A DNA stretch of 64,000 bases from Candidatus Uhrbacteria bacterium (GTDB taxonomy: Bacteria > Patescibacteriota > Patescibacteriia > UBA9934 > GWF2-40-263), in NCBI GenBank assembly GCA_016188475.1, contig JACPHT010000008.1, forward strand, positions 150,192 to 214,191, given 5' to 3'. Below are positions 2,875-45,612 of the stretch, piece by piece (within the stretch, counting starts at the first letter, position 1; each line of letters opens with the position of its first letter). Made by a program: the position numbers and the translations under genes. The notes below the pieces were generated by a model that made no database searches, was not told where the DNA came from, and saw nothing but the letters and a program-made list of their open reading frames with translations.

Positions 2875-2890
2875 ATAGAGAAATGTCTAA

Positions 2891-2914
2891 AAGGTCCGAA
2901 AGGACCGAGAGGTC
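2891..2914. repeat. 9-bp repeat-family copy (GGTCCGAAAGGACCGAGAGGTC) in the rpsB-tsf intergenic region; it forms GNRA mini-hairpins
   Basis: Seen directly. Confidence 0.5.
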
Positions 2915-2937
2915 AAAAAAACTAAGAAGACAAAAAA

Positions 2938-4787: not shown

Positions 4788-5877
4788 ACATCGCGTCGCC
4801 AAAGGAAAAAAATCTGTATTTTTGAGCGACCGCTTCTTTGTACGCGCGCAAAACATTTTCTCTTCCAACAAAAGCTGAAACCAAAACCAACAATGTTGAT
4901 TTTGGTAAATGAAAATTCGTGATAAGTCCATCAATTATTTTGAAATCAAAACCTGGTTTGATAAATAAATTAACGTCACCTGTAAATGCGATAAAAGATC
5001 CTTCGCGGAGCTTACCCTGAGCAAAGTCGAAGGGCTCAGGATGACAACAAGAGGAAGCAACACCTTCAAGAGTCCGAACCGTTGTCGTTCCAACCGCGAT
5101 CACACGCCGTTTTTCTTTTTTTGCTTGATTGATTCGATCTGCAGTTTCTTTTGAAATCGAAACAAACTCGCTGTGCATTTCATGTTCTTCGATCGTTGCT
5201 GTTTTCATTGGACGAAAAGTTCCGATTCCAACATGAAGCGTTACAAATTCAAACTGAACGCCTTTTGATTTTAATTTTTCCATGAGATTTTCAGTGAAAT
5301 GAAACCCGGCTGTTGGCGCAGCAACAGAACCTGCCTCTTTTGCGTAAATGGTTTGATAATCTTCCAATCGCTCCGGCTTATTTTTGACGTAAGGAGGAAT
5401 CGGAATTTCGCCGTACTCATTTGCAAAAACGATAACGTCTTCTGGCGCGCGATCAAACTTCACTAAAACTATTCCGTCTGACTTTTTTTCAAAAACTTCA
5501 CAACAAAGTTTTTTAATCCCGTATTCGAGACAAATTGTCTGGCCGACTTGCACTTTTCTTCCTGGCCGCGCCATTGTTTCCCAAACATTATTTTCCCGAG
5601 CGCGCAACAAAAATATCTCAATCTCTGCTTTGACCTTTCCGACCTCTCGGTCATTTCCGACCTTTCCAATCATTCTTGCTCGAAAAACTTTCGTATCATT
5701 AAACACAAGTACGTCGCCTTCTTTAAGTTCATCAACAATCTCAAAAAATTTCTTGTGCTTCAACTTCCCTGTTTGCCTATCTAAAACCATTAGACGAGAA
5801 TGGTCGCGCGGCAAAATCGAATGTTGAGCAATCAATTCTTTTGGAAGATGATAATTGAATTCTTCAATTTGAGTCAT
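4777..5877 (-). CDS. queA: S-adenosylmethionine:tRNA ribosyltransferase-isomerase
   Basis: MTQIEEFNYHLPKELIAQHSILPRDHSRLMVLDR...VGTTTVRTLE; it carries an in-frame 9-bp repeat insertion at 5632-5667. Confidence 0.85.
   Translation of the reverse strand: MTQIEEFNYHLPKELIAQHSILPRDHSRLMVLDRQTGKLKHKKFFEIVDELKEGDVLVFNDTKVFRARMIGKVGNDREVGKVKAEIEIFLLRARENNVWETMARPGRKVQVGQTICLEYGIKKLCCEVFEKKSDGIVLVKFDRAPEDVIVFANEYGEIPIPPYVKNKPERLEDYQTIYAKEAGSVAAPTAGFHFTENLMEKLKSKGVQFEFVTLHVGIGTFRPMKTATIEEHEMHSEFVSISKETADRINQAKKEKRRVIAVGTTTVRTLEGVASSCCHPEPFDFAQGKLREGSFIAFTGDVNLFIKPGFDFKIIDGLITNFHLPKSTLLVLVSAFVGRENVLRAYKEAVAQKYRFFSFGDAMFIV
5632..5667. repeat. (GGTCGGAAA)n-family tandem repeat, in frame inside queA (encodes GKVGNDREVGKV)
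   Basis: Seen directly. Confidence 0.6.
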
Positions 5878-7436: not shown

Positions 7437-7518
7437 AAAGAGCGGTTGTATCGTGTCGTAGGGAACAACGGCGACAGTCCGATGGCCCGGAGACACGATA
7501 CAACCGCTCTTTTTTAAC
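7437..7518 (+). repeat. Long-stem hairpin element, copy 1, with conserved core GTCGTAGGGAACAACGGCGACAGTCCGATGGCCCGGAGAC; followed by a T-run, so it is a likely prfA terminator
   Basis: A ~20-bp stem (aagagcggttgtatcgtgtc / gacacgatacaaccgctctt) encloses the conserved core, then ttttttaacc. Confidence 0.6.
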
Positions 7519-12049: not shown

Positions 12050-12093
12050 AGTTGTTTTACATTATCACACACGCTTCAGCTTCTTCAACCTCT

Positions 12094-18016: not shown

Positions 18017-18028
18017 AATATAGCATTG

Positions 18029-18118
18029 CCTGAGCCTGTCGAAGGCAGTAAAGATTATAGCCTGAGCCTGTCGAAGGCAGTAAAGATTATAGCCTGAGCC
18101 TGTCGAAGGCAGTAAAAA
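18029..18118. repeat. Three tandem copies of a 32-bp unit (CCTGAGCCTGTCGAAGGCAGTAAAGATTATAG); a related single copy lies at 58731-58751
   Basis: Seen directly; the copies are contiguous with no spacers. Confidence 0.7.
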
Positions 18119-18172
18119 ATACTTTAATTAAAAATAGTGGGAGTCTAAAAGACGCCAATACCACAAACTAAT

Positions 18173-20674: not shown

Positions 20675-21046
20675 TTATGACGAATCTGTCAATGTTGGCT
20701 TGACAAAAACAAGATCATCACTCGCACCAAACGTGAGGCCGGATCTGGAATCAATCCGATCAAAATTTCGAGCAACGAGTGGGCAGTAATGCTCAAATTC
20801 ACATTCGCCTTGTGGCTCGACTCCGCTGAAGGACAGAAGTACACGACGGTCGGAGATTCCAACCGACACCTCGACAATGGCCAGATCGGAACAATAAATG
20901 GCGTCCCGGTCATTGTCGTCCCAAATCTTGAGGATCGTCTGCCAACCCCACCATCTGGTGTTAGGTAGCCGTTCTTTCTCCACCCATGTCCGACTAGGGC
21001 GTGGGTGCTTTTTATTTTCGATAAAAAAACTTAATTCATATTTCAC
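20675..21046 (-). CDS. hypothetical protein; first gene of the GC-rich cassette
   Basis: ORF. Confidence 0.35.
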   Translation of the reverse strand: MKYELSFFIENKKHPRPSRTWVEKERLPNTRWWGWQTILKIWDDNDRDAIYCSDLAIVEVSVGISDRRVLLSFSGVEPQGECEFEHYCPLVARNFDRIDSRSGLTFGASDDLVFVKPTLTDSS

Positions 21047-21077
21047 TTAACTACCGATCGGGAGTTAAGTGTGATAA
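21044..21077. repeat. Palindromic element, copy A (CACTTAACT(A/C)CCGATCGGGAGTTAAGTGTGAT)
   Basis: 28-bp hairpin with one mismatch plus a TGTGAT extension. Confidence 0.7.
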
Positions 21078-21086
21078 AGTTTAATT

Positions 21087-21662
21087 ATGTCTAAAAACAT
21101 CTCTTCAAATTCTGTTCCATCTAGAATCTTCGATGTGCTCTTATCAGAAGCCGATGATCTTCTATTTTTATTTCATCATCCTCATGCAGTGTTACGAACA
21201 GTAGGAAATATTGAATCTGCACGTAACATGCTCGCACGAAAAGAACGAAATCTTCAACGAATTAAAAAAACAGAAATCAACCAGGCCTTGCAACGACTCA
21301 ATTCGCAAAAATTACTGCGGATAAGTAAAAAGGGTAATGAAATTTACTTCTTTTTGACTGAAAATGGCATAAAAGAGGGTTTGAAACGTACAATTCAAAA
21401 GAAGAAACAACGTCTTGCAGGCAAACGACGTTGTTACGTGAGTTTTGATATTCCTGAACAAGCAAGTTCTACACGGTGGGCATTAAGAAAACTTTTGAAA
21501 GATTCACACTTCAAAATGATTCATCTTAGTTTATGGAGTTCTGAATTCGACGTTGGAAAAGAAATGGCGGCGTTGATAAAAATAATGAGAGCCGAAACAT
21601 GGGTACACGTTTTCGAAGCAAGGGCTCTAACTTCCATTAACAAAAAAAGCAAAAACTCGTAA
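21087..21662 (+). CDS. hypothetical protein: an N-terminal winged-HTH-like region plus a C-terminal region with a Cas2/VapD-like sequence pattern
   Basis: C-terminal RRCYVSFDIPEQASSTRWALRKLLKDSHFKMIHLSLWSS resembles the Cas2 beta1-alpha1-beta2 core (YD[IV]...R.LRK.L...G.R.Q.SVFEC). It is flanked on both sides by the 38-bp palindrome. There is no cas1 or CRISPR array nearby. Confidence 0.45.
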   Translation: MSKNISSNSVPSRIFDVLLSEADDLLFLFHHPHAVLRTVGNIESARNMLARKERNLQRIKKTEINQALQRLNSQKLLRISKKGNEIYFFLTENGIKEGLKRTIQKKKQRLAGKRRCYVSFDIPEQASSTRWALRKLLKDSHFKMIHLSLWSSEFDVGKEMAALIKIMRAETWVHVFEARALTSINKKSKNS

Positions 21663-21693
21663 TCACACTTAACTCCCGATCGGGAGTTAAGTG
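21661..21693. repeat. Palindromic element, copy B (AATCACACTTAACTCCCGATCGGGAGTTAAGTG), between convergent gene ends
   Basis: Perfect palindrome seen directly. Confidence 0.7.
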
Positions 21694-21694
21694 T

Positions 21695-22609
21695 TTACAG
21701 TTGTCTCAAAACGTTCTTCAACATACGACATGCTTCTTCTGTGGTTTCGTATTTGATGTGATAAACAATTGCTGGATTTCCAAGCGCAAAATTTGAAATC
21801 ACTGAATCTTTTTTTGAAATAAGCACGATTGGTTTTTCAAACATGTAAGCGAGAACGAGTTCGCCACCAGCTCCCAAAGATGGATTTGAAACATCAGCTA
21901 TGAGCACATCACAATTTTTGATTTTATTTTCAGTCCAATCATAAACCGCGCGAACGTCACGCTCTTCGCGTGGTTTTTTATTTTCAGGATTATCACGAAA
22001 TGGAATTATTGGTTCACAACCTAATTCATCACACACACGACCAAGCGCTTCGTGAACAACTTTATCATCAGCCAAACCATTATTGTTTGTATACGATCCA
22101 GCTATGTAGGCTGATTTTACAGTTGGTTTAAGTGTTTTTGAATACACTCTATCGCGATTAAACTCAACATGTGCGTTTGCTAGTAAATACACATTGCGAA
22201 TTCCATTTTCAATCATCACGTTCCAACATTGCTCGCAACACCACCAATGGCCGTACAAATAAATATCCGATCCTGACGGATCAATTCCCGACTCATTTGC
22301 AACAGCAATTACCATTTGTTCTGCATGTCCTGGAGCGTCGTGTAAATGACACAAATCATATCCTGTTCCACTAGGACACTCCAACACAACTCGAGGACAA
22401 ACATGTCTCGTGCCAGAACCTTTATTAAACCCATTTCCGGCTCGAGTGAAAATTTTTCCGTCTCTAACTAACACTGCTCCAACTGGATACAACCTGTCGC
22501 CTGCACAATCCTCGCGTGCGCGCGCCGCTTCTTGCATGAATGGATCGTCCGCACTGACAAAATAAAAAACTTTTCCATCAGGCAAAAATGGATACTCTAT
22601 TTCTGGCAT
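21695..22609 (-). CDS. Fusion protein: dCMP (cytidine/deoxycytidylate) deaminase domain plus a nucleoside 2-deoxyribosyltransferase-like (Rcl/DNPH1-like) domain
   Basis: Zinc motifs HAEQMVI and PCxxC-type WWCCEQC in the N-terminal half. The C-terminal half has AYIAGSY...SLGAGGELVLAYMFEKPIVLI, matching the NDT-family Rossmann signature. Confidence 0.65.
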   Translation of the reverse strand: MPEIEYPFLPDGKVFYFVSADDPFMQEAARAREDCAGDRLYPVGAVLVRDGKIFTRAGNGFNKGSGTRHVCPRVVLECPSGTGYDLCHLHDAPGHAEQMVIAVANESGIDPSGSDIYLYGHWWCCEQCWNVMIENGIRNVYLLANAHVEFNRDRVYSKTLKPTVKSAYIAGSYTNNNGLADDKVVHEALGRVCDELGCEPIIPFRDNPENKKPREERDVRAVYDWTENKIKNCDVLIADVSNPSLGAGGELVLAYMFEKPIVLISKKDSVISNFALGNPAIVYHIKYETTEEACRMLKNVLRQL

Positions 22610-23117: not shown

Positions 23118-23161
23118 TAAAGATATTCTTCGTCGCTTCGCTCCTCAGAATGACGAAAAGA

Positions 23162-23996
23162 CTAATAAACATTCACCGTGATCTCCATTCCACTAATCGA
23201 CTCAAGTGGTTGATACTGTGATTTAAGCGAGGTAAAAATTTCGTTCACAAGTTCTAAATCTCCGTTCATGGCGCGCTCGTAACTTCCAACAGGAACTCTC
23301 AAAGAAACAGGTCCATGATCATTCGTGCGGGAAATAAGTTCGCGTGCCGCAGTGAAATGATTGTCGTAAATATGCGCGTTACTGATCGAATGCGTGTAAA
23401 TTCCTGGTTGAACTTCAAGCCTGTCCGCCAAAATACATTGCAAAAGCGCAAATCCAGCCGCGTCATGAGGACATCCAAGCATCATGTCATTGCTTCTGAT
23501 AATATTGTGCAAATGCAATTTTCCACCAGCGATGTTTACAGTAAATGTATATGGACATGGGAGATTTTTCTTTGAATCAACACCGAGTCCGTCATCAGCC
23601 GGATCCCATGTGATCACAACCGCATGTCGAGAATGCGGATTTTGTGTGAGATGATTTACAAGACAATCAATTTGATCGCGTCCGAAATGATGACGCCAAC
23701 GATGGCCATACGCGGCTTTTACTGTTCCGTCTTCTTCCAAAAAATCATCCCAAATTTTTGTAAACTGTTGAAGCCAAGTTGGATTGTTCTGTCCCATCAA
23801 ATACCAAATTTGTTCAGCAATAAAAATCTTAAGAGGAATCTTTCGCAAAGTGAGAAGCGGAAAACTTTCCTGAACATCAACGCGCAACGTGACTCCAGGC
23901 AACATTCTCGTTATGCGGCCAGACCATGGATTTGGAATTTCATATCCATTTTCCATGATGTCGGAAATTGCGCTTTTGTATTGAACATCAAATGGG
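23162..23996 (-). CDS. thyA: thymidylate synthase ThyA family
   Basis: Catalytic-Cys region LPCPYTFTVNIAGGKLHLHNIIRSNDMMLGCPHDAAGFALL. The track's N-terminal extension (FPHFRPFGPF) is encoded by a 9-bp repeat copy and is probably 5' UTR. Confidence 0.8.
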
Positions 23997-24006
23997 GTCA
24001 TATTGT

Positions 24007-24038
24007 GGAAAGGTCTGAAAGGACCAAAAGGTCGAAAA
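24007..24038. repeat. 9-bp repeat-family copy (GGAAAGGTCTGAAAGGACCAAAAGGTCGAAAA) in the thyA 5' region
   Basis: Seen directly. Confidence 0.5.
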
Positions 24039-24126
24039 TGTGGAAACAATTTAATTTGACCCCCATAATGTACCAGACATGAGACCAGTTTCCAACATCC
24101 TATCTTTCGGATAAAATGCCTACATT

Positions 24127-28502: not shown

Positions 28503-29418
28503 ATTGAAACGCTTCATCAGAACTCGAAATCCACTTAATTCTCGGGTCGCGTTTAAACCAAGTCATCTGGCGCTTCGCATAGTGTCTGGTGGCTTTTTTG
28601 GTTTCTTCGATCGCTTCATCAAGTGCAGTCTCGCCTTTGAGAAATGAACAAATCTGCCGATATCCAATTCCTGACATTGAATAAATTTCACATCCGTATT
28701 TGTCATTAAGTGAACGAACCTCATCCACAAGTCCGTTTTCGACCATTTCATCTACGCGCAAATCAATCCGCGCATTCAACTCTTGTCTGTCAACAAGAAG
28801 TCCGATTTGCAAAACATCATATCTTGGATTTCCTTTTGTTTGTTTTTCAAAAAACGTCTTGCCAGACAATTTCGTAACCTCAAGCGCGCGCACGATTCGA
28901 CGTTTGTTGTCTTTATCAATAACTTCAGCGCCTTTTGGATCGAGTTGCTTATACTCGGCGAACAAATCATCAAGCGAACGCGATTCCAATTCAACGCGAA
29001 GTTTGAAATCTGCCGGAATGTTTGTTAAATCAAAATTATCGATCAAAGATGAAACCCAAAGCCCTGTTCCACCAACAAGTATTGGAATACGTTTCCGTTG
29101 AATTATCTCGTCAATTTTCTGTTCAGAATATTTTTTGAAATCTGCAACTGAATAATCTTCATCAGGATCAACAAGATCAATCCCCCAATGTAGAATTCCA
29201 TCAACTGTCTTTTCCTCTCGGTCATATCCGACCTTTCCGACCTTTCGTTCCTTTCCGACCTTTGCCGTTCCAATATCCATTCCTCGATACACCTGCCGTG
29301 AATCTACACTTACCACTTCCCCGCTGAACTTTTTTGCAATTTCAATTCCAAGTCCGGTTTTTCCTGACGCTGTTTGCCCGACGATTGCGATAAGTTTAGG
29401 TAGCATACTTGTTGACAT
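28480..29418 (-). CDS. miaA: tRNA dimethylallyltransferase
   Basis: LIAIVGQTASGKT...VSVDSRQVYRGMDIGTAK; contains an in-frame 9-bp repeat insertion (KERKVGKVGYDRE). Confidence 0.9.
   Translation of the reverse strand: MSTSMLPKLIAIVGQTASGKTGLGIEIAKKFSGEVVSVDSRQVYRGMDIGTAKVGKERKVGKVGYDREEKTVDGILHWGIDLVDPDEDYSVADFKKYSEQKIDEIIQRKRIPILVGGTGLWVSSLIDNFDLTNIPADFKLRVELESRSLDDLFAEYKQLDPKGAEVIDKDNKRRIVRALEVTKLSGKTFFEKQTKGNPRYDVLQIGLLVDRQELNARIDLRVDEMVENGLVDEVRSLNDKYGCEIYSMSGIGYRQICSFLKGETALDEAIEETKKATRHYAKRQMTWFKRDPRIKWISSSDEAFQFISDFLA
29228..29266. repeat. (CCGACCTTT)n tandem 9-mer repeat, in frame inside miaA
   Basis: Seen directly. Confidence 0.6.
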
Positions 29419-31521: not shown

Positions 31522-33618
31522 ATGCCAAAAAAACAAGAAAACCCAGTTAAAGAGGCTCGTGAGGAATCATCAAAGAGCCCGATGTTCACAAACATTGAAA
31601 CCGCTGAAGTTGAGATGACAACGTATGAATTCGGATCGGAAGTCGAATCAACTCGTTCAGATGGAGAACTTGTTCAGGAGATTGTAATTGGAAATTCTGG
31701 ATCAAAAGAAAACGCAACTGTCGTTCTTGCGCGAAAAAGTGAAGCTGGACCACTTTTGCGTGTTGTAGGCAGCGATGAACTTGCATCAAGTGTAAGGACT
31801 GATCATCAACTTGAATTATATTCTGATGCTGTCATTTCAGCGGCTGAGTCTGCTGTGAAAGCGGCTGGTTTGAAAGGCAATGAAGCAAAAGAAGCATTGG
31901 CGCTTCTTGCTGAAGAAGCTCCAAAAGTTATTGCAAAAGCAATGGGAGAAAAAAATCCTGAGAAAGCTCTTTCTGACTTTGTCCTTGAAGAAGCGCGGGC
32001 CGTTGCTAGTGGTAAGAGTGAAAAATCTGTTTTGAGTCTTGAAGCTCTCACAGAACAATTGGCTCATGCTAGACAAAAAGCCGATACTGCAAAAAATGAT
32101 CGAGAATATAAAGCGGCGCTTGTTGAAATTCATGCTGTTGAAAAAGCCGTTTATGAAACGCGCGTCGCCTTAAATCCTGACGCTTCAAAAAAAGAAAAAA
32201 TCGAAATCGCAAATCAGGTTGATGGAGCTGTTGAATTAATTCCAGATCCACTTTACGAAGATGGTTATAAGGCTGTTAAAAATCGAATTGTTGAACTTGA
32301 AAAAATAATGAAAGATGCAGATAAAAACAAGGACGGAGTTGCGTGGACTGTTGCGCGAAACGAATACGATCGTCATCGCGCAATATTGCCAGTCCTAGAA
32401 AAAGTTGAAATGGTATTGGATGTGAAAGCTCAAATTGATGCAATGATCGCAGAAAAAATCTGGGAACAAAACGAGTACTCTTCCAAAAAACGAGAAAAAG
32501 GAACAATGCAAAAAAAGTTCTGGAAAGGAGTTATTGAAAGACAAGAAAAGCTTCAGAGAACAATTGAGGATGGAATCATGGTGTTAACTCAAAAACAAAA
32601 TGAAGATACTGGCAAAGACATAGAAAAACTTGAAGCAAAACGGCTTGAATCTCTTGAATTTCTTCAAACAGCACAAAAAAACATCCAAAAAGTTGAAAAA
32701 GAAATGGAAGAACTTGAAAACATGGGTGTGCTTATTGATTTTGATACTGAAGAAAAACCAAACGAAGCTCGATCAGCTCTTTATTTCCAACTGATGGATA
32801 CATACAAAGAAAATCCAAAAGAAGTGATGAATTACATTGACGGAATGATCAAGAGTAAAAAAGTTAACACGTCAACTCTCGGAATACTGAAGGCGGTCAA
32901 GGAAGTTATAAGAGTGATGGAATCACAGCCAAAAGTAGAACAGAAAAAAGAAGCTGAAGAGGCTAAAAAAGTTGGAGAGGCTGGAGAAGTTAAAGAAATT
33001 CCAAAAACAAAACAAGAAGCAAAAGTAATTCCAATAGAACCAAGATTGCGAAAAACAAGAAAAGAAACTTTGAAACCTGGTACTGTGATCGAATCAGTGT
33101 TTGAAACAAAACAAGCTGAAAAAACCGGCCTTAAACCAGGAGACATTGTTGAATCTGTGATGGAACCAGAAGAAGTTGAAGAAGTTAGAGAAGCTGAAGT
33201 GGTTGGAAAAGAGAACAGTCAGGAACGTAACACTGACGAGATTAAAATAATTGATTATTCAAATGAAAAAGTCCAAGATCTCATAAACGCAGGAATCGTA
33301 GAGAACGCTGGCGAATTGGAACTTTATGAGCGTTTATACATTGAACTATATATTGCGCTTGATTCACTTGGACTAAAACCACAAGACGAAGGTTTGCCTT
33401 CGAGTTTTGAAGAAATGGTAAACACAAAAGATTCACGAGGAATTTTTGGAAAAATGTTTGGCGCAAAAACAGAGCGAGTCAAGCTGTTCAACAAACTTAA
33501 AGAAGCTCACTACACATATATAGATTCTGGAAAAGTTGATATTGGAAGCGTTCTAAAAAGACAACACAGACGCTATGAAGATTACGAAAGTTCGATGAGA
33601 AGCGCTGGAAAATTCTAA
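31522..33618 (+). CDS. large hypothetical coiled-coil protein; its C-terminal third carries two copies of the EAEEV/EAGEA DNA motif
   Basis: 698-aa ORF, K/E-rich and helical. Confidence 0.5.
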   Translation: MPKKQENPVKEAREESSKSPMFTNIETAEVEMTTYEFGSEVESTRSDGELVQEIVIGNSGSKENATVVLARKSEAGPLLRVVGSDELASSVRTDHQLELYSDAVISAAESAVKAAGLKGNEAKEALALLAEEAPKVIAKAMGEKNPEKALSDFVLEEARAVASGKSEKSVLSLEALTEQLAHARQKADTAKNDREYKAALVEIHAVEKAVYETRVALNPDASKKEKIEIANQVDGAVELIPDPLYEDGYKAVKNRIVELEKIMKDADKNKDGVAWTVARNEYDRHRAILPVLEKVEMVLDVKAQIDAMIAEKIWEQNEYSSKKREKGTMQKKFWKGVIERQEKLQRTIEDGIMVLTQKQNEDTGKDIEKLEAKRLESLEFLQTAQKNIQKVEKEMEELENMGVLIDFDTEEKPNEARSALYFQLMDTYKENPKEVMNYIDGMIKSKKVNTSTLGILKAVKEVIRVMESQPKVEQKKEAEEAKKVGEAGEVKEIPKTKQEAKVIPIEPRLRKTRKETLKPGTVIESVFETKQAEKTGLKPGDIVESVMEPEEVEEVREAEVVGKENSQERNTDEIKIIDYSNEKVQDLINAGIVENAGELELYERLYIELYIALDSLGLKPQDEGLPSSFEEMVNTKDSRGIFGKMFGAKTERVKLFNKLKEAHYTYIDSGKVDIGSVLKRQHRRYEDYESSMRSAGKF

Positions 33619-35540: not shown

Positions 35541-35623
35541 AAACAGAAGCGATAGCGTCATGTCGTAGGGAACAGCGGCGAGGAGTCCGCTGGCCCGTAG
35601 ACATGGCATGTCGCTTCTGTTTG
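35541..35623 (+). repeat. Long-stem hairpin element, copy 2 (core GTCGTAGGGAACAGCGGCGAGGAGTCCGCTGGCCCGTAGAC)
   Basis: Same core as copy 1 in a different, self-complementary stem. Confidence 0.6.
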
Positions 35624-36955: not shown

Positions 36956-37017
36956 GTCATTGCGAGGAGGAGTAAAGCGACGACGAAGCAATCTGACCCA
37001 TTGGGTCATTAGATTAA
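36956..37017. repeat. Partial copy of the GTCATTGCGAGG...GCGACGAAGCAATCT nested-palindrome family
   Basis: Matches the copies at 45530-45612 and 55811-55891. Confidence 0.5.
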
Positions 37018-37096
37018 AAAAGAGCAGTTTGTACTATGTCGAAGGGAACAACGGCGAAGAGTCCGTTGGCCCGGAGACATGGTACAAACTGCTCGA
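37015..37096 (+). repeat. Long-stem hairpin element, copy 3 (core GTCGAAGGGAACAACGGCGAAGAGTCCGTTGGCCCGGAGAC); acts as a terminator for the minus-strand gene 37204-37815
   Basis: 20-bp stem; the A-run on the plus side is a U-run on the minus transcript. Confidence 0.6.
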
Positions 37097-38022: not shown

Positions 38023-41000
38023 TTACGTCACTTTCACATTTTGCCGTCCAACAAGCGATGCGATCTCGTCCACAATCTCATCAGAAATAAAAACAGAATA
38101 ATCAGTTTCGATTTGTCTAACCCGTCCACCGGATTCAACAAGCAAACAAACTGAAGTTTGACCGGGCGATCTTTGTAATATCTCGCGCAATCGTGACACT
38201 AACTCCGGAGCCGGATTTCCTTGAAGCGCGATTGAAAGTGTTCCAGTTATTACAGGAACTTGAGCAACAACTGTTTTTGGATCAGCCCATTGACCTCGAG
38301 AAAGCATTTGGACAAGCTGTGGAAGTTGATCCTCCGTGTATCCAATAAGTCCATTTGCCAATAAACTCAATTCACCATTGCGTCTAGACACTTTCGCGGA
38401 AACAAGTGTTAGTTGATCGAGTTGTAATGAAAATTTTGATCGAGTAAAAACTTCAGGGAAAAGCACAAGTTCCACAACACCTGTTGCATCTTCAACACTT
38501 ACAAATGCCATTGGTTCTCCTTTTTTTGTAATTATTTCTTTTATTGCTGTTATAACTCCACCACAATGAATCAACTTACTGCTTGGGTGATCTTTAACTT
38601 TCGCACACGGAACAATTAGCGGCCCCAAAACACTAGCGCTTTGTTCAAATGGATGCGCGCTAAGATAAAGACCTAACAATTCTTTTTCCCATGCAAGAAG
38701 TTCTTGGATTCCTGCCGGTTCTGTTTCACGAAGTGTGATTGCAGAGTCCATCACGGTCGGCGATGATGAAAACAAACTTTGTTGGTTTGATGAAATCTCT
38801 TTTTGAATAGATTTATTGTGCATCAAAATTCTATCAACGTTTTCAAAAAGTTGGCGTCTCTCACCAAAACGATCAAGCGCTCCGGATTTTATAAGAGCCT
38901 CAAGAGATTTTTTATTAAACGCGTGATGGGAGATGCGTCCTGCAAAATCAGATAAATCTTTGAACGGCCCATTGTTTTTTCTTTCTGTAATAATTGACGC
39001 GACAACTTCTTCTCCTAAATTTTTTACAACAAGCAAACCAAAACGAATCTGTTTATCATTCATGAAAGTAAAATCCTTTCTTGATTCATTTATATCAGGA
39101 GACAAAACCTCAATTCCGAGGCGTTCGCATTCGTGAACTGCTTCAGCAATTTTTTCTAAATCACCAGCCTCTGCTGTCATAAGCGCTGTCATGTATTCGG
39201 CTGGAAAATTCGCTTTCATGTACGCGGTTTGATAAGCAACCATCCCGTAACTCGCGGCGTGACTTTTATTAAACCCATAAGCGGCAAACGGTTCAATAAG
39301 CTTCCAAAGTTGACGCGCTTTGTCGTCCGTAAGTCCGTGCGCGATAAATCCTTCAAGCAACTTGATTTTTTGCAATGCCATCTCTGCTGGAATTTTCTTT
39401 CCCATGGCTTTTCGAAGTTTGTCAGCTTCAAGCCACGAGTAACCGCCCAAATGAATGGCTGTCAACATAACGTCATCTTGATAAACAATAACTCCGTATG
39501 ACATTTTCAAAATCGGTTCCATGCGCGGATCAAGATATGAAATAAGCGACGTGTCGTGTTTACGTTTGATGTATTCAGGAATTGATTCAATCGGACCAGG
39601 ACGATAAAGAGCGACCATTGCCATAAGATCCTCAACGCGCTCTGGCTTCAAATCCATGAGATATTTTGTCATTCCTTCTCCGTTCAACTGAAACACGCCC
39701 ATTGTGTGGCCTTTTGCAAGAAGTGAAAAAGTTTTTTTGTCATTGATTGGAATGCGCTCAATATCAATCTCAATTCCTTTCAGTTTTTTCACAAGAGCAA
39801 CAGCGTCTCCCAAAATCGACAAATTGCGAATTCCAAGAAAATCCATTTTAACAAGACCTGCTGTTTCAACAGCGTGCATTTCATATTGAGTAATAACTTT
39901 TCCTTCACGAGTATCAATTTGAAGCGGAGTAAAATCCGTAAGATCAGTTGGCGCAATAACTGCTCCTGCCGCGTGAATTGAAACATGACGAGCGCATCCT
40001 TCAATTTGTTTTGCAAGATCAATAATGCGTCGCACGTTTGCGTCGGTATCAAATTTCTTTTTTAAATCCGGCGCTTCATTAAGAGCGCGAGTGAGTGTCA
40101 TTGGAAATCCTTGCGAACCCATTGGGACAAGTTTCGCGATCTCATCTACCATTGGATATGGAAACCCAAGCGCTCGTCCGACATCGCGAACAGAACCACG
40201 CGCAAGCATTGTTCCAAAAGTACAAATCTGTGAAACTTTTTCTTGTCCATATTTTCCTCGAACATAATCCAAAACTTCATCACGGCGGTTGTCGGCAAAA
40301 TCAGTATCAATATCAGGAGCTGACGGACGTTCTGGATTTAAAAAACGTTCAAACGGCAATTCATAAGTCAAAGGATTGATTGATGAAATTCCGATTCCGT
40401 AACTCACAAGCGATCCTGCGGCTGAACCGCGCGTTGTTGTGACAATCCCGTTTGATCTTGCCCAATTGATAAAATCAGAGACAATCAAAAAGTATGGACA
40501 AAAGCCTTTTTGATCGATAATTTCCAACTCATACGCGAGACGTTGTTCCATTACGTCTGTTAACGGGCCTTCTTTCTCAGCAAGTTGTTGTTCAGCGCGT
40601 TGTGTTAAAACCTGACGAAAAGTTTGCCCTTCTGGAATTTCAAATTTTGGAAAATTCCATTTTCCAAGTTCGAGCTCAAGCAAACAACGATCCGCAATGC
40701 GACGCGTGTTTTCAATCGCTTCCGGAACATCAGCAAAACGTTCTTCCATATACTGCGCGCTCACCATTGACGCGTCATAATCGTATGGATTGATTCTCTC
40801 AAAATGTTCAAGTGTTTTTCCGCCTTTAATGCAATTCAAAATTTTCCAAGCTTCTGCGTCTTGCGGCTTGAGATATAAAGTATTTTTCGTCGCAACAATC
40901 GGCACATTCATTTTTTTCCCAAGCTCAATCAGTTGCGCGTTTGTGCTTTCTTGTTCTGCGATTTCTGGACGATCAACAAGTTCTAAGAAAAAATTTCCAT

Positions 41001-41517
41001 CACCAAATATCTCTACATACTCGCGAACAATTTCTTCAACCCTTTCCGACTTTTCAGACCTTTCCGATCTTGCTCTTATTGCTTCATCAATCTCACCTTG
41101 ATATCCACCTGAAAGCGCGATCAATCCTTTTGAATACTGACGTAAAACTTCCAAATCAATTCTTGGCTTGTAATAAAATCCTTCGAGAAATCCGACTGAG
41201 GAAAGATGGATCAAGTTTCGATAACCTTCTTCATTTTGCGCAAGACAAACAAGATGAAATGGTTTTGTATCAATGTGCGCGCGTTTCAAATAACGTCCTT
41301 CGCGCGAAAGATAAAAATCAACTCCGATGATTGGTTTGATTCCTGCGTCTTTTGCTTTTTGATAAAATTCCATCGCACCATACATCGCGCCATTATCAGT
41401 AAGCGCCACAGAATCCATACCGCAATTTTTGACATGCGAAATAATCTCTTTGATTTTCGGAAGAGCCTCGAGAAGCGAATAGTGTGAATGGGTGTGAAGG
41501 TGGACGAAAGAGGACAT
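38023..41517 (-). CDS. dnaE: DNA polymerase III alpha subunit, with an in-frame 9-bp repeat insertion (RARSERSEKSERV)
   Basis: PHP domain MSSFVHLHTHSHYSLLEA...; length 1164 aa. Confidence 0.95.
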   Translation of the reverse strand: MSSFVHLHTHSHYSLLEALPKIKEIISHVKNCGMDSVALTDNGAMYGAMEFYQKAKDAGIKPIIGVDFYLSREGRYLKRAHIDTKPFHLVCLAQNEEGYRNLIHLSSVGFLEGFYYKPRIDLEVLRQYSKGLIALSGGYQGEIDEAIRARSERSEKSERVEEIVREYVEIFGDGNFFLELVDRPEIAEQESTNAQLIELGKKMNVPIVATKNTLYLKPQDAEAWKILNCIKGGKTLEHFERINPYDYDASMVSAQYMEERFADVPEAIENTRRIADRCLLELELGKWNFPKFEIPEGQTFRQVLTQRAEQQLAEKEGPLTDVMEQRLAYELEIIDQKGFCPYFLIVSDFINWARSNGIVTTTRGSAAGSLVSYGIGISSINPLTYELPFERFLNPERPSAPDIDTDFADNRRDEVLDYVRGKYGQEKVSQICTFGTMLARGSVRDVGRALGFPYPMVDEIAKLVPMGSQGFPMTLTRALNEAPDLKKKFDTDANVRRIIDLAKQIEGCARHVSIHAAGAVIAPTDLTDFTPLQIDTREGKVITQYEMHAVETAGLVKMDFLGIRNLSILGDAVALVKKLKGIEIDIERIPINDKKTFSLLAKGHTMGVFQLNGEGMTKYLMDLKPERVEDLMAMVALYRPGPIESIPEYIKRKHDTSLISYLDPRMEPILKMSYGVIVYQDDVMLTAIHLGGYSWLEADKLRKAMGKKIPAEMALQKIKLLEGFIAHGLTDDKARQLWKLIEPFAAYGFNKSHAASYGMVAYQTAYMKANFPAEYMTALMTAEAGDLEKIAEAVHECERLGIEVLSPDINESRKDFTFMNDKQIRFGLLVVKNLGEEVVASIITERKNNGPFKDLSDFAGRISHHAFNKKSLEALIKSGALDRFGERRQLFENVDRILMHNKSIQKEISSNQQSLFSSSPTVMDSAITLRETEPAGIQELLAWEKELLGLYLSAHPFEQSASVLGPLIVPCAKVKDHPSSKLIHCGGVITAIKEIITKKGEPMAFVSVEDATGVVELVLFPEVFTRSKFSLQLDQLTLVSAKVSRRNGELSLLANGLIGYTEDQLPQLVQMLSRGQWADPKTVVAQVPVITGTLSIALQGNPAPELVSRLREILQRSPGQTSVCLLVESGGRVRQIETDYSVFISDEIVDEIASLVGRQNVKVT
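41041..41069. repeat. 9-bp tandem repeat, in frame inside dnaE
   Basis: Seen directly. Confidence 0.6.
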
Positions 41518-41525
41518 ATGTGTAC

Positions 41526-41577
41526 TTCCGACTTCTGATTTCTGATTTCTGATCTCTGATCTCCGATCTCTGATTTA
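41526..41577. repeat. 7-bp tandem repeat (TCTGATT-like, about 7 units) in the dnaE 5' leader
   Basis: Seen directly. Confidence 0.6.
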
Positions 41578-41661: not shown

Positions 41662-41961
41662 CTACTTACTTTTTTTCTTACTCTTTTTTGTCTTTTCCAA
41701 CCGTTTATCAACAATATACTCCATTCCTTTTGCCGCTAATTGAACCACAACTCCCAAAGACGAAGTGGCTGTTTCAAATTTAGATTGAATTCCTGAAAGC
41801 GCTGATTCAACTTTGTGCATCACTTCTTTTCCTTCATTCATCGTTTCATTCACGTTTCTCAACATTGATGCCATCTGCCACAAAAGCCAAAAAATTGCGG
41901 CCGTAAGCCAAAGCGCGCAGAAAGCAAGTACAATGTACAAAATATCAAGTGGGGAAAACAT
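41662..41961 (-). CDS. small hypothetical membrane/coiled-coil protein (DUF948-like)
   Basis: ORF. Confidence 0.35.
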   Translation of the reverse strand: MFSPLDILYIVLAFCALWLTAAIFWLLWQMASMLRNVNETMNEGKEVMHKVESALSGIQSKFETATSSLGVVVQLAAKGMEYIVDKRLEKTKKSKKKSK

Positions 41962-41967
41962 AGAAAA

Positions 41968-42006
41968 AAGGTCTGAGAGGACGGAAAGGACGGAAAGGAC
42001 GGAAAT
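41968..42006. repeat. (GGACGGAAA)n tandem 9-mer repeat, abutting the pheT stop codon
   Basis: Seen directly. Confidence 0.6.
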
Positions 42007-42007
42007 G

Positions 42008-44470
42008 TTACGATCTTAGTATAGCATGAAATTCTTCTTCCAGCACATGACGAATTTTTTCAACTTCTTGATCAACTTCTTTTGATTCTAACGTTCGTTC
42101 ATCAGATCTAAATGACAAATGAATCGCGAGAGATTTTTTTCCTTCTTCAACCCCTTTGCCGCGATAAACATCAAACAATTCAATTCGTTCAAGAAGTGTT
42201 GAAGTTTTTCCTAACTTCTCTTCGATTGTTTCGTATTCAGAACGTTCATCAAGAACAAACGCTAAATCGCGTTTCACTTCTGGAAATTGTGGAAGCTGTT
42301 TGAATGATTTAATCGATGTGCATTTCGAAAAAAATTCTGGCTCATGAATGTCAATCAAAACGCAAACAGGATCCAAACCAAAATTTTTCACGAACATGTC
42401 GCTCACTTGCCCAATTTCGCCAACATAATTTTTGCCAATATAAATTGCTGCGAGACGGCCGTCGTGATAATGCGCGATGTAGTCAGCCGGATCGCGTGAA
42501 CGTTCGAGTGACCAGTCGTTGATTCCTAGTTCTCGCATCAATCGCGCAAGCGCGCCTTTTGCACGCAAAAATAATTCACGTCCATCTTTTCCATAGCAAG
42601 CAATCACAAGATGTAATGGTTCATCAGGCAGATTGCCTTTTTTTGGAATGTAAACTGGAGCAATTTCAAACAAATCCGCTTCTGGAAAACGATGCTGATT
42701 CTGTTCGACTGTTGTGAGCATGCTCGGAACAAGAGACGGACGCATAAATTCAAATTCACTACTTAATGGATTGCGCAAAAAAACCGCATAATCTTTTTTC
42801 ATTCCGTACGCAGTGAGCTGTTTTTCGGAAATGAACGAATACGAATATATTTCTGTAAAACCAGCGCCTTTAAGAACTTCTTTTGTTCGACGCTGAAACT
42901 TTATCGCTTGATCTTCTTGAATCAACTGAATTTCGCCAGCCGGAAAAACCGACGGAAAATTCGCATACCCATACACGCGAGCGATCTCTTCAACAAAATC
43001 AACTGATGCTTCAATATCATGGTCGCGCCAGTATGGGACAGTAATCTGAAAATATTTATTCACTGAGCGAAGGCCTGTTACCCCTTCTACAAGCTCAGGG
43101 AGTAACTGGCCTGAGTCGAAGGGTCCTTTTACAACAAATCCGAGTCGCTCCAGAATTTCAACCATCTTTTTGTCTTCCATTTCAATTCCCATGAGTGCGC
43201 GTGCTTTTTGCGGATCAAAATCAAACACGCGTGATTCGTAAGACTTTGCTTGTTCTGTCATAACTGACGAAGCGGTTTTTCCACCAGTGAGTTCAGTAAT
43301 GAGTTCCACAGCTCGCGCAAGCGCCGGCTCGGTAGATTCTGTTGAAAGACCTTTCTCAAATAACAATTGCGAATCAGAATACAAATTCAGCGCGCGCGCT
43401 GTGCGTCGAACAGAAACAGGATCAAACGTCGCGCTCTCAATCAAAACACGCGTTGTATTTTCGGTTGTCGCTGTTGCTTCCCCTCCCATTACTCCTGCGA
43501 CCGCAACAACTTTTTTCGCATCAGCAATCACAAGCATATCATCTGAAAATTCATAATCCTTTCCATCAAGCGCTTTCATTTTTTCACCTTTTTTTGCTTT
43601 GCGAACAATAATTTTTTCACCATCAAGTTTGTCAGCGTCAAACGCATGAAGCGGCTGGCCGTATTCGTGTAAAACGTAATTTGTAATATCAACGACATTA
43701 TTTATCGGACGATGGCCAGCAAGCAGTAAACGTTTTTGCAACCACCACGGCGACGGCCCGACTTTTACGTTTTCAATCAAAATGGCGGAATATTTCGGAC
43801 AAAGTCTTGGTTCTTTAACTTCAATCGTAAACCTATCATCATCTTCTTTCAGACCTTTCAGACCTTTCAGTCCTTTCAGACCTTGTTCTGTAACAACCGC
43901 CCCTTCCCTCGCCTGCCCAACAATACTCATGCAATCAACACGATTACTCGTTACTTCAATATCAAAAATAGTGTCGTCAAGTTCAAGCGCTTTCGCAATT
44001 GACGTTCCGGGTTTTGCAGAAGTAAGTTCTGTTATATCCCAAATCTCATGATATCCATGTGGCAACTTTTCAAAACCGATTTCTTCAACAGCGCAAATCA
44101 TACCATGACTTTCTACTCCACGAATTTTTGTTTTTGCAAGTTCAACCAAATCCCCTTCTCCGTGCCATTTAACTTTTGCCCCAGGAAGTCCCACAACCAC
44201 TCGTTGTCCTTGCGACAAGTTCACACCTCCGCAAACAATTTCAACAGTCCCATGTCCAACATCAGTTAGAGCGATCTTTAGCTTGTCAGCGTTTGGATGC
44301 GGCTTCACTTCTTTTACAAAACCAACGACTATTTTTTCAAATCGCTCTGAAAGTTGATCCATCCGCTCAACAGAATTTCCGACAGCAGTTGTTTTCTTCG
44401 CAAATTCTTCCGGCGAAAGATCAGTGTCAAGATATTCTTTAATCCAATTGTAGGAAGTAAGAATGTTCAT
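42008..44470 (-). CDS. pheT: phenylalanyl-tRNA synthetase beta subunit, with an in-frame GLKGLKGLKGLK insertion
   Basis: tRNA-binding domain, B3/4, B5 and FDX-ACB architecture. Confidence 0.9.
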   Translation of the reverse strand: MNILTSYNWIKEYLDTDLSPEEFAKKTTAVGNSVERMDQLSERFEKIVVGFVKEVKPHPNADKLKIALTDVGHGTVEIVCGGVNLSQGQRVVVGLPGAKVKWHGEGDLVELAKTKIRGVESHGMICAVEEIGFEKLPHGYHEIWDITELTSAKPGTSIAKALELDDTIFDIEVTSNRVDCMSIVGQAREGAVVTEQGLKGLKGLKGLKEDDDRFTIEVKEPRLCPKYSAILIENVKVGPSPWWLQKRLLLAGHRPINNVVDITNYVLHEYGQPLHAFDADKLDGEKIIVRKAKKGEKMKALDGKDYEFSDDMLVIADAKKVVAVAGVMGGEATATTENTTRVLIESATFDPVSVRRTARALNLYSDSQLLFEKGLSTESTEPALARAVELITELTGGKTASSVMTEQAKSYESRVFDFDPQKARALMGIEMEDKKMVEILERLGFVVKGPFDSGQLLPELVEGVTGLRSVNKYFQITVPYWRDHDIEASVDFVEEIARVYGYANFPSVFPAGEIQLIQEDQAIKFQRRTKEVLKGAGFTEIYSYSFISEKQLTAYGMKKDYAVFLRNPLSSEFEFMRPSLVPSMLTTVEQNQHRFPEADLFEIAPVYIPKKGNLPDEPLHLVIACYGKDGRELFLRAKGALARLMRELGINDWSLERSRDPADYIAHYHDGRLAAIYIGKNYVGEIGQVSDMFVKNFGLDPVCVLIDIHEPEFFSKCTSIKSFKQLPQFPEVKRDLAFVLDERSEYETIEEKLGKTSTLLERIELFDVYRGKGVEEGKKSLAIHLSFRSDERTLESKEVDQEVEKIRHVLEEEFHAILRS
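43848..43884. repeat. (CAGACCTTT)n tandem 9-mer repeat, in frame inside pheT
   Basis: Seen directly. Confidence 0.6.
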
Positions 44471-45520: not shown

Positions 45521-45529
45521 ATTATTTTT

Positions 45530-45612
45530 GTCATTGCGAGAGAGCGCCAGCGACCGAAGCAATCTCTTTGCTTAGATTGCTTCGTCGTCACTACGTTCCT
45601 CCTCGCAATGAC
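45530..45612. repeat. Nested palindromic element GTCATTGCGAG...cgaagcaatct-loop-agattgcttcg...CTCGCAATGAC, between pheS and rseP
   Basis: Seen directly. Confidence 0.65.

Follow-up and report, generated by a model that had tools for sequence, protein, structure and literature searches.

The window, the whole 64 kb stretch of DNA that was analysed, belongs to the genome of a groundwater Candidatus Uhrbacteria bacterium (CPR), and contains seven loci at which a 9 nt unit is repeated in tandem. Four of these arrays lie in frame within queA, miaA, dnaE and pheT, as the original prediction had held, and the other three in tiny intergenic spacers next to rpsB, tsf, thyA and pheT, all of these genes having been identified through Pfam (Table 1). 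Three of the seven arrays fall within the approximately 3% of the window that is non-coding (coding fraction 0.967). The unit in this genome is AAGGTC[G/T]GA, and the consensus of the wider family is RAGGNCNNA. Searching for GAAAGGWCNGARAGG with at most one mismatch gave 19 matches, all at these seven loci, as opposed to 0.05±0.22 in 100 dinucleotide shuffles of the window; a looser scan for three units recovered the identical seven loci, with 0–1 in shuffles. TRF reported a period of 9 and 2.6–4.3 copies per locus. The arrays span 27–51 nt and are composed only of head-to-tail 9-mers, with open ends and a variable number of units.

Table 1. Repeat arrays in the window, with strand, genetic context and, for coding arrays, the encoded peptide and reading frame.
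Feature	Position	Strand	Context	Encoded peptide	Frame
rpsB–tsf spacer array	2882..2917	+ (purine strand)	between rpsB 2938-3660 (-) and tsf 2287-2874 (-)		
queA array	5629..5667	-	in queA 4777-5877 (-)	GKVGNDREVGKV(K)	AAG GTC GGA
thyA leader array	24007..24045	+ (purine strand)	thyA 23162-24001 (-); pyrimidine in mRNA; ends 5 nt before ATG		
miaA array	29216..29266	-	in miaA 28480-29406 (-)	(A)KVGKERKVGKVGYDRE	AAG GTC GGA
dnaE array	41036..41071	-	PHP domain of dnaE 38023-41517 (-)	RSERSEKSERV	TCG GAA AGG
dnaE leader 7-mer array	41526..41577	-	ATCAGAA/ATCGGAG, ~6–7 units; ends 9 nt before dnaE ATG		
pheT-downstream spacer array	41966..42007	+ (purine strand)	fills 46-nt spacer; pyrimidine strand in mRNA		
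pheT array	43840..43884	-	pheT 42008-44470 (-), linker before B3/4 domain	GLKGLKGLKGLK	GGT CTG AAA

Repeats, and the peptides quoted for them, were seen at every site originally proposed. The array in the dnaE leader is a separate 7-mer repeat; it is purine-rich, related to but distinct from the 9-mer, with a core only partly similar. The miaA array, placed at 29228-29266, continues to about 29216, and the copy described as lying at the pheT stop codon (42008-42010) fills the whole spacer between it and the start (41961) of a conserved 99 aa membrane-like ORF (41662-41961, minus strand). Neither do all copies share an orientation, as had been thought: the purine strand of the coding arrays is on the minus strand and is the sense strand, but at the three intergenic loci it is on the plus strand, opposite in sense to the neighbouring genes.

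The part of the miaA array between 29228 and 29266 alone encodes AKVGKERKVGKVG, and the first unit of the array shares sequence with the conserved GTAK(V) motif. Aligning the protein with B. halodurans MiaA (2qgn) leaves a 13 aa gap at the array, and this loop is hypervariable amongst relatives with 73–82% identity, which have between 0 and 26 extra residues. In the AlphaFold model of MiaA, the pLDDT is below 50 only at residues 53-63 (ERKVGKVGYDR), corresponding to the array segment. The queA array adds seven residues relative to T. maritima QueA (1vky) and, in the model, lengthens a β-hairpin, with a pLDDT of about 80. Five close relatives have nothing in the same loop ('KTQHG'), and L206 and L208 have arrays with units of other flavours (relatives are referred to by the labels of their loci). 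The more distant L209, whose QueA is 60% identical, reads GKVGDRE at the equivalent place, but different codons specify it and the DNA there is not repetitive. Some of the queA segment may hence have been inherited as protein sequence from an ancestor, and certain apparent 'units' may be native sequence from which an array was seeded. This goes part of the way towards the observation originally said to refute the idea, namely orthologues with the same peptide encoded by unrelated DNA.

In dnaE, the array constitutes an additional 5 aa relative to all 39 other orthologues listed from the alignment. It is identical in L124, and has the same length in L210 but only 58% nucleotide identity, compared with 96% and 87% in the flanking sequences. 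The pheT array occupies a hypervariable linker, which is of similar length in Staphylococcus PheT and contains other short peptide repeats in other lineages. The L210 PheT, with 86% amino acid identity, has GLKGPKGPRGPRGRD at this position, which is equal in length but encoded by an array with 61% nucleotide identity, compared with 84–85% in the flanks. The pheT gene of the window also has a separate GC-rich, inserted-looking element of approximately 69 bp (23 codons), which is absent from this 86%-identical orthologue.

Orthologue alignments bear out the expectation that the repeats are lineage-specific, the segments in all four proteins being variable or absent in relatives, and most are found in variable regions or loops, as anticipated, with that of MiaA the only part of its model to have so low a pLDDT. 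The claim that all three reading frames of one 9-mer are used also holds, the resulting peptides being based on KVG in MiaA and QueA, SER in DnaE and GLK in PheT. Additionally, the ksgA gene of L025 contains a 9-mer array read in an antisense frame (SDVLSDLSVLSDLSDLS), giving an SDL peptide. This supports the original view that the repeat is a property of the DNA and not of a peptide.

The pyrimidine strand is found in the mRNA at every intergenic array, both in the window and in the relatives, and for 11 of these 13 arrays a well-supported ATG follows within 0–8 nt of the end; in the exceptions (L003 8460-8504 and L206 3436-3480), the called start codon is 45–160 nt away. The tsf leader mRNA carries GACCUCUCGGUCCUUUCGGACCUUUUAGACAUUUCU, which stops 4 nt short of the ATG; leaving out its degenerate final unit, GACAUUUCU, increases this distance to 13 nt. 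The equivalent spacers in L206, L207 and L208 have arrays of 5–6 different units, such that the unit numbers in the four genomes are 3–4, 5, 6 and 5–6; hence an array is kept at this site despite the turnover of its sequence. At the thyA site, L003 has inverted 9-mer arrays and L004 inverted 8-mer arrays. The spacer between pheT and the 99 aa ORF contains a 3-unit array in L210, but L124 instead has a canonical Shine-Dalgarno (SD) sequence, TAGGAGAT-ATG, and no array. In L124 and L210, 9-mer arrays in the pyrimidine sense take the position held by the 7-mer in the window dnaE leader. The 7- and 8-mer families of these genomes were seen in intergenic DNA only, and coding arrays usually have the purine strand as the sense strand. 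An SD-like core precedes only 16 of the 64 genes in the window, and the leaders of 11 of the 64 are at least 75% pyrimidine.

Mini-hairpins had been noted within some units, and do exist in some of the arrays, but folding is not clearly stronger than that of shuffled sequences: the seven arrays have z scores of −0.02 to −2.4, with no folding of the array at 41966 (z −0.02) and values between −1.1 and −2.4 for the remainder. Hairpins were rejected as a defining feature of the family on this basis. The inverted pairs of arrays in the L003 and L004 thyA leaders fold as long hairpins (z −3.5 and −4.0).

Comparisons covered the 64 kb of the window genome and pieces of 1.5–21 kb from relatives. Arrays of the form (RAGGNCNNA)n are present in the close relatives L001, L003, L004, L025, L124, L206, L207, L208 and L210, and were not found in the more distant Uhrbacteria loci examined (L125–L202 and L209); to judge from these sequences, the family would appear to occur only amongst close relatives, with roughly 73% protein identity or more. 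Scanning public genomes with GGWCNGARAGGWCNGARAGGWC returned at least 118 stretches, and the matches listed are mostly single 9-mer arrays in high-GC genomes, with L025 the sole Uhrbacteria locus among them. Searching the window with Rfam at gathering thresholds identified three tRNAs only, and assigned no repeat to a known RNA family; nothing relevant was found in the literature on tandem or in-frame repeats in CPR bacteria or Uhrbacteria. An assembly artefact was ruled out, the arrays being identical in the NCBI MAG and in independent Logan assemblies. No length polymorphism within the population was seen, either in thyA, the array of which is identical in the independent assembly L203, or in the three Logan contigs (L203–L205), which were retrieved through an exact match to the MiaA protein and so cannot exhibit variation in miaA. 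At 90% identity, the QueA protein cluster contains start-codon variants only, and the DnaE cluster has members from other lineages.

At orthologous sites in relatives, the array may be absent, different in length, or retained at the same length with a changed sequence, and arrays change far faster than their flanks. The unit 'flavour' is common to all loci of one genome and different between genomes. Sharing of 6-mers is 0.33 between different loci of the same genome, 0.26 between the same locus in different clades and 0.14 between different loci in different clades, a statistic that is based on few genomes, with the grouping of contigs into one genome itself inferred (L003 with L206). The gap between the same-genome and orthologous values is modest overall; orthologous queA and thyA arrays share 0.00–0.07. 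Because these flavours are specific to genomes across loci, they indicate concerted evolution of the arrays, as far as comparison of the sequences can reveal. In L124, the arrays in the dnaE leader and in the dnaE coding sequence, approximately 490 nt apart, are linked by a 27 nt perfect reverse complement.

We consider it probable that these arrays represent a clade-specific, dispersed 9 nt microsatellite, spread by slippage and by copying between arrays and then filtered by selection, as opposed to a transposing element. Slipped-strand mispairing would alter the number of units, and arrays would both seed new sites and homogenise one another through template switching or ectopic gene conversion. 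This copying may include nearby inverted events, which we propose because of the 27 nt reverse complement in L124 and the inverted thyA pairs of L003 and L004. Within ORFs, selection would then retain only a 9 nt period, equivalent to three codons, and would do so in variable loops and linkers alone; it is this period that would enable arrays to persist in genes. The strand used as coding sense lacks stop codons and specifies hydrophilic K, G, E, R, S and V residues, and in leaders only the pyrimidine orientation, which does not resemble an SD sequence, would persist. The leader arrays probably serve as an SD-less translation initiation region, or are at least tolerated as one. A more speculative extension, which we regard as possible but rather unlikely, is that CU-rich arrays of 9-mers (and 7- and 8-mers) act as the translation-initiation leaders of many SD-less genes in this clade, as modular 'landing pads' able to replace the SD sequence, with unit number tuning expression and templated copying maintaining their uniformity within a genome, and that occasional inverted copies in nearby coding loops give essential proteins rapidly changing, genome-specific loops.

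The alternative that fares best places selection first: the pyrimidine leader array would be a lineage-specific, modular element for SD-independent ribosome loading or regulation, with its copy number tuning expression, and inverted copying from leaders would have produced the coding arrays incidentally. The consistent pyrimidine orientation and the proximity of most intergenic arrays to an ATG are in keeping with this, as are the retention of the tsf array in four genomes, the alternation of array and canonical SD at a single start codon (that of the 99 aa ORF, in comparison with L124), the three quarters of genes that lack an SD-like core, the pyrimidine-rich leaders and the L124 inverted copy linking the leader and coding arrays of dnaE. 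However, with so little non-coding DNA, any intergenic array falls near a start codon; the dnaE leader of the window has a purine-rich 7-mer instead, and the thyA leader of L004 has 8-mers; the unit sequence is not conserved, unlike a specific binding site; and an equal strand bias is exhibited by heptamer repeats with no identified role in gene regulation (PMC4692102). We think this explanation rather unlikely.

Far less plausible is that the arrays are decayed copies of a miniature mobile element, inserted into genes and spacers by an enzyme in the manner of a Rickettsia palindromic element (RPE) or MITE, which is close to the proliferating micro-insertion element first suggested. One sequence family does occur at many unrelated sites, including in frame within essential genes, some units form GGWCC–GNRA–GGWCC hairpins, and the window has other small elements that look inserted, such as that in pheT. 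Nevertheless, the seven loci and the comparisons of empty and filled sites reveal no defined length, terminal inverted repeats or target-site duplication; none of the last was visible between the empty queA site of L207 and the filled sites of the window, L206 and L208, nor at the other loci. This absence of termini and duplications indicates that the arrays are not MITE- or RPE-like. They are instead pure runs of head-to-tail 9-mers of variable number, their orthologous sites stay occupied as the sequence changes, and their folding is not significantly better than that of shuffles. Least credible of all, and for the most part contradicted already by the frames in use and the intergenic copies, is convergence at the protein level, by which selection for flexible K/G/E/R/S-rich linkers and codon bias would mimic similarity of DNA: the GKVGDRE of L209 and the PheT linkers of Staphylococcus and other lineages are consistent with it, but one 9-mer gives unrelated peptides in three frames and antisense, identical units are found in non-coding spacers, and close relatives lack the segments in miaA, queA and dnaE.

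Tandem heptamers known as STRRs were reportedly described in cyanobacteria by Mazel et al. in 1990. Judged by analogy, the families of heptamer repeats in cyanobacteria and Xanthomonas appear to be the closest to the dispersed microsatellite proposed here. The GGGNATC families dispersed in Xanthomonas and Nostoc (Rehm et al. 2015, PMC4692102) display strand and position biases and vary between relatives, with no function demonstrated (PMC4692102). As in those families, a single short unit is found in tandem at many genomic loci, with a strong excess of arrays in non-coding DNA; in the 50 bp upstream of ORFs, the purine- or G-rich strand tends to be the antisense one; and relatives have arrays between the same genes, with widely differing length and sequence. 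The differences are the unit of 9 nt, permitting in-frame persistence in ORFs, with four of the seven arrays in essential genes, and the host, a CPR bacterium with a small genome; genome-specific flavours, in coding and non-coding loci alike, are also documented for the present family. Compared with G-quadruplex simple sequence repeats of the type discussed by Rehm et al., characterised by at least four consecutive G-tracts and a preference for four units, the arrays have GG tracts only, and the intergenic transcripts are C/U-rich.

RPEs are in-frame MITE insertions, discrete elements of approximately 100–150 bp in families that each encode a conserved peptide (PMC10969869). The arrays resemble them in placing repetitive DNA in frame within unrelated housekeeping genes, at positions compatible with fold and function, but are open-ended runs with no termini, read in several frames with a changing number of units and hence no single conserved peptide. 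Microsatellites at contingency loci are likewise tandem repeats in or near genes, and change unit number by slippage; however, a 9 nt unit never shifts the frame, and the hosts here are core translation, replication and tRNA-modification genes rather than surface antigens, which sets the arrays apart from phase variation. REP and BIME sequences are similarly short, dispersed and intergenic, and some of the arrays also form hairpins or inverted pairs (as in the thyA leaders of L003 and L004), but these are tandem direct repeats, and hairpin potential is inconsistent between them.

The family may offer a tractable case of a short repeat being dispersed and kept uniform, with no transposase, in a bacterial genome of very small size, and as empty, filled and 'recoded' orthologous sites all exist, the mechanism is directly testable. 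It suggests that lengthening a 7 or 8 nt period to 9 nt suffices for a microsatellite to persist in essential genes, where it would continually generate variation in the loops of DnaE, PheT, MiaA and QueA. The strict placement and orientation of intergenic arrays upstream of start codons, in a mostly SD-less lineage, also provides a concrete hypothesis regarding the initiation of translation in CPR bacteria.

Arrays were also found to coincide with breaks in metagenome contigs, those of the closest PheT relatives in the metagenome set (L124 and L177) ending at or near the pheT array. They coincide as well with extended or misplaced starts of ORF calls in thyA, miaA and queA; the miaA ORF as called is 322 aa, and the database protein begins 14 residues later.

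A tandem repeat of 9 nt was found to form seven arrays in the window, with the unit AAGGTC[G/T]GA on the purine strand and variants that include AAGGACCGA and GAGGTCGGA. Matches to GAAAGGWCNGARAGG with up to one mismatch numbered 19, at seven loci, compared with 0.05±0.22 (maximum 1) in dinucleotide-preserving shuffles; when the search was relaxed to any three RAGGNCNNA units in a row (up to three mismatches), it recovered the identical seven loci, against 0–1 in shuffles, and a two-unit scan added one further marginal match only. TRF assigned period 9 and 2.6–4.3 copies to the arrays with a start listed in the table. The host genes were identified through Pfam as queA, miaA, pheT and dnaE for the coding arrays, and rpsB, tsf and thyA. 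The repeat is read as AAG GTC GGA in miaA and queA, as TCG GAA AGG in dnaE and as GGT CTG AAA in pheT, hence each of the three purine-strand frames is used. The original prediction was thus right about the presence of the family, about the peptides quoted for the four genes and about frame usage. It was mistaken in giving every copy a single orientation, as the four coding arrays run one way and the three intergenic ones the other, and in treating mini-hairpins as a family trait: the seven arrays fold at z −0.02 to −2.4 only, which rejects a hairpin as the defining property. The miaA array exists but is longer than predicted; the copy assigned to the pheT stop is present, but occupies the 46-nt spacer between that stop and a conserved 99-aa ORF; and a supposed variant in the dnaE leader is a 7-mer repeat distinct from the 9-mer family. 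Within the 64 kb of the window and the short stretches of related genomes that were covered, the repeat is a family at the level of the DNA that occupies two niches, coding and intergenic, and it probably represents a clade-specific, dispersed microsatellite.

Repeat arrays and other small elements in the window
Feature	Position	Strand	TRF start
9-mer array, rpsB–tsf spacer	2882-2917	+	2890
9-mer array, queA		-	
9-mer array, thyA leader	24007-24045	+	24009
9-mer array, miaA	29228-29266, reaching ~29216	-	29227
9-mer array, dnaE		-	41041
9-mer array, spacer after pheT	41966-42007	+	41967
9-mer array, pheT		-	43846
7-mer repeat	41526-41577		
99-aa ORF	41662-41961	-	
GC-rich hairpin element, pheT	43046-43129		
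GC-rich hairpin element, queA	5013-5050		
32-bp unit, three tandem copies	18025-18120		
32-bp unit, single copies	58729-58760, 58692-58729		
32-bp unit, single copy	2248-2277	reverse complement	
~75-nt hairpin	7441-7503, 35548-35611, 37024-37087		
~183-bp element	3744-3925		
GAAGAAGYT family	224-298, 32926-33018, 33157-33222	+	
GAAGAAGYT family	10998-11059, 12074-12111, 63590-63666	reverse complement	
698-aa ORF	31522-33618		
GTCATTGCGAGGAGCGAAGCGACGAAGCAATCT inverted repeats	23128-23154, 36956-36994, 45527-45612, 55811-55894	both orientations	
CACTTAACTCCCGATCGGGAGTTAAGTG palindrome	21044-21075, 21662-21697, 60965-61000		
ORF between palindromes	21087-21662		

A 234-kb contig of a Candidatus Uhrbacteria MAG (Patescibacteria/CPR) encodes proteins identical to MiaA, QueA and DnaE. 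The miaA array is identical in independent Logan assemblies of three sequencing runs, as is the thyA array in one of these (L203), which excludes an assembly artefact. Syntenic DNA from relatives was compared for the miaA region (loci L001, L003 and L004), queA–rpsB–tsf (L206, L207 and L208) and pheT–dnaE (L124 and L210), together with L025, from a pattern scan, and the distant L209. The three-unit scan detected the 9-mer family in all close relatives (about 73–90% protein identity), but in neither 80 more distant PheT loci nor L209; among the loci compared, it appears confined to this clade. The metagenome contigs of the closest PheT relatives (the start of L124 and the end of L177) stop at or beside the PheT array position, one of these ends being a palindromic artefact, which suggests that the arrays break short-read assemblies. 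The matches listed from a pattern scan of public genomes include at least several Gemmatimonadales MAG loci with GGACGGAGA 9-mer arrays (L012, L015, L019, L031, L036, L045, L054 and L056), often as inverted pairs, several of which form long hairpins, and Acidobacteriota MAG loci with GGTCCGARA arrays that reach about 15 units (L016, L040, L041, L067 and L078). The units in these other phyla closely resemble that of the window, but as the search was biased toward this unit, the resemblance may be one of ascertainment.

Since the coding density of the window is about 97%, three of the seven arrays lie within about 3% of the DNA. This enrichment in intergenic DNA comes with a rule of orientation and position: the pyrimidine strand is the mRNA sense at every intergenic locus, in the window and relatives alike, and 11 of the 13 intergenic arrays stop 0–8 nt upstream of a well-supported start codon, the two exceptions, both in relatives, being 45–160 nt from the called start. 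Arrays precede tsf in four genomes (3–6 units, of differing sequence), thyA, the small ORF that follows pheT (window and L210), dnaE in L124 and L210, and one gene in L003. Where the window and L210 carry the array before the small ORF, L124 has a canonical Shine-Dalgarno (SD) sequence, TAGGAGAT-ATG. This 99-aa ORF, situated between pheT and dnaE, just under the 100-aa cut-off of the ORF list, and kept in both relatives, has an N-terminal hydrophobic segment (MFSPLDILYIVLAFCALWLTAAIFWLLWQ…) and scores above threshold for no Pfam family. Of 64 genes called in the clade, only 16 show an SD-like core; the leaders of 11 are at least 75% pyrimidine, and many of these leaders consist of 7- or 8-mer arrays, for instance (TTGCTACT)n, from families found in intergenic DNA only. 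Dispersed spacer-only 7-/8-mer arrays (AGTAGCAA, GTAGTAA, AATGACA and others) were seen in L003, L004, L206, L207, L124 and L210, often as inverted pairs or directly upstream of starts with the pyrimidine strand in the mRNA. Selection in leaders would retain only the orientation that is not SD-like. The main rival explanation, for which we see perhaps an outside chance, is that the leader arrays are themselves selected, as a putative SD-independent initiation or regulatory element; it is compatible with the microsatellite reading.

At fixed sites, the arrays change much faster than their flanks, as judged from sequence comparison. Between the window and L210, in which DnaE is >90% and PheT 86% identical in amino acid sequence, the dnaE and pheT arrays have the same length, yet the former is 58% identical in nucleotides (flanks 96% and 87%) and the latter 61% (flanks 84% and 85%); the window reads AGATCGGAA AGGTCTGAA AAGTCGGAA versus ATGACCGAG ATGACCAAG AAGGCCGAG in L210, and the PheT array peptides compared are GLKGLKGLKGLK and GLKGPKGPRGPRGRD. 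The flavour of the unit is specific to the lineage and alike at coding and non-coding loci: AAGGTC[G/T]GA in the window group, GAGGGCCCA / GAAGGCCCA / GAGGACCAA in L003 and L206, and AAGGACCAA / GAGGTCTAA in L207, L208 and L210. Mean 6-mer sharing was 0.33 between different loci of the same genome, 0.26 between clades at the same locus and 0.14 between clades at different loci, with orthologous queA and thyA arrays sharing only 0.00–0.07. Such an excess within genomes would be the signature of copying or conversion among the arrays of one genome. Inverted local copies also exist: the dnaE leader array of L124 is matched, some 490 nt downstream in the coding array of dnaE, by a 27-nt perfect reverse complement that takes in an unusual AAAGTCGGA unit, apparently a direct footprint of copying between arrays. 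Inverted pairs in the thyA leader fold into long hairpins in L003 (9-mers, z −3.5) and L004 (8-mers, z −4.0). Under the microsatellite explanation, slippage would alter unit number, while template switching or ectopic conversion would seed and homogenise the arrays.

The closest known class seems to be the genome-wide heptamer families, with GGGNATC of Xanthomonas and Nostoc as one example and the STRR repeats of cyanobacteria as another. The GGGNATC heptamers are over-represented in non-coding DNA, carry the G-rich strand as antisense in the 50 bp that precede ORFs, and vary extensively in length and sequence at the same intergenic sites of close relatives; their authors were unable to identify a role in gene regulation, and described work on repeats with 5–9-nt units as rare (PMC4692102). 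The Uhrbacteria arrays differ in their host, a CPR bacterium, a group for which we found no literature on such repeats, in the concerted evolution documented across coding and non-coding arrays, and in their 9-nt period, which makes persistence in essential ORFs possible. The in-frame outcome does resemble that of Rickettsia palindromic elements (RPE; PMC10969869), as originally proposed, but the arrays lack termini, fixed length and target-site duplications, and orthologous sites remain occupied, hence a mobile element of the MITE or RPE type is unlikely.

Within genes, the predicted lineage-specific insertions into variable regions were borne out by alignment. The miaA array follows the invariant GTAK motif and adds 13 residues relative to B. 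halodurans MiaA (2qgn); relatives at 73–82% identity have from 0 to 26 extra residues there (EET, VDC, GEVGKDREGKT, GKDEEGPEGREVGKGLEGPEVLEGKT), and most other Uhrbacteria a different, conserved insertion of ~25 aa. In queA, 7 residues are added relative to T. maritima QueA (1vky) in a loop that is empty (KTQHG and similar) in five close relatives and holds GKVLEGLEGPEG in L206 and GRVEKDQEDQKDQDE in L208, both from other 9-mer variants. The dnaE array adds 5 residues relative to Taq DnaE and to every one of the 39 further orthologues shown from the alignment, whilst that of pheT lies in a linker of hypervariable sequence and roughly constant length, which carries unrelated short repeats in other lineages. 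Of the proposed surface loops, that of MiaA is predicted to be disordered, the array exactly matching the sole segment below 50 pLDDT (residues 53–63, ERKVGKVGYDR) in an AlphaFold model of mean pLDDT 89.8; the QueA segment is modelled as lengthening a β-hairpin, at pLDDT about 80. In ksgA of L025 the repeat lies in the opposite orientation and encodes SDVLSDLSVLSDLSDLS, hence a fourth frame is in use, in keeping with a repeat that is a feature of the DNA and not of the peptide. Selection would retain only in-frame, stop-free arrays encoding hydrophilic residues, where loops or linkers are variable. At the array position, the distant L209 QueA reads GKVGDRE (GGG AAA GTT GGT GAT CGA GAG) with no DNA repeat behind it, so that some of the queA segment may be ancestral and have seeded the array. 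Convergence at the protein level is contradicted by the use of several frames and by the copies outside genes, and is largely excluded.

Several other small repeats were observed. Both pheT and queA contain, in frame, a GC-rich hairpin element (core like CCTGAGC..GTCGAAGG), which resembles a true RPE-style insertion more closely than the 9-mer arrays do. The PheT copy contributes ~23 aa (GPFDSGQLLPELVEGVTGLRSVNKYFQ), wholly missing from the L210 orthologue (86% identical); the QueA copy contributes ~13 aa (HPEPFDFAQGKLREGS), at a site where the model has its lowest pLDDT and other Uhrbacteria have different peptides from GC-rich elements. A 32-bp unit, GCCTGAGCCTGTCGAAGGCAGTAAAGATTATA, contains the core of this element and is present as three near-perfect tandem copies and as single copies. 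An intergenic hairpin of ~75 nt, found also at L025 5425-5494 and partially in L207 and L003, combines an apical part that is invariant (GUCGNAGGGAACARCGGCGA…AGUCCGNUGRCCCGNAGAC) with a lower stem of 19 bp, the sequence of which varies between copies with compensatory changes (9 pairs altered on both sides across 4 copies); it matches nothing in Rfam and is a candidate for a structured RNA or a REP-like element. A self-complementary element of ~183 bp (RNA fold −76 kcal/mol), situated between a SIMPL/DUF541 gene and rpsB, looks MITE-like, given a 91% identical copy in an unrelated context of another Uhrbacteria genome (L025 5216-5398). A second 9-nt family, GAAGAAGYT / GAGGCTGGA, encodes E/K/A/V/G-rich C-terminal tails of several proteins, is also found inside a 698-aa ORF, and may repeat the same phenomenon with a different unit. 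The dispersed inverted repeats GTCATTGCGAGGAGCGAAGCGACGAAGCAATCT lie mostly at gene ends, and a perfect palindrome of 28–36 nt, CACTTAACTCCCGATCGGGAGTTAAGTG, has three copies, two of which flank an ORF; in L004 it lies just upstream of a called start.
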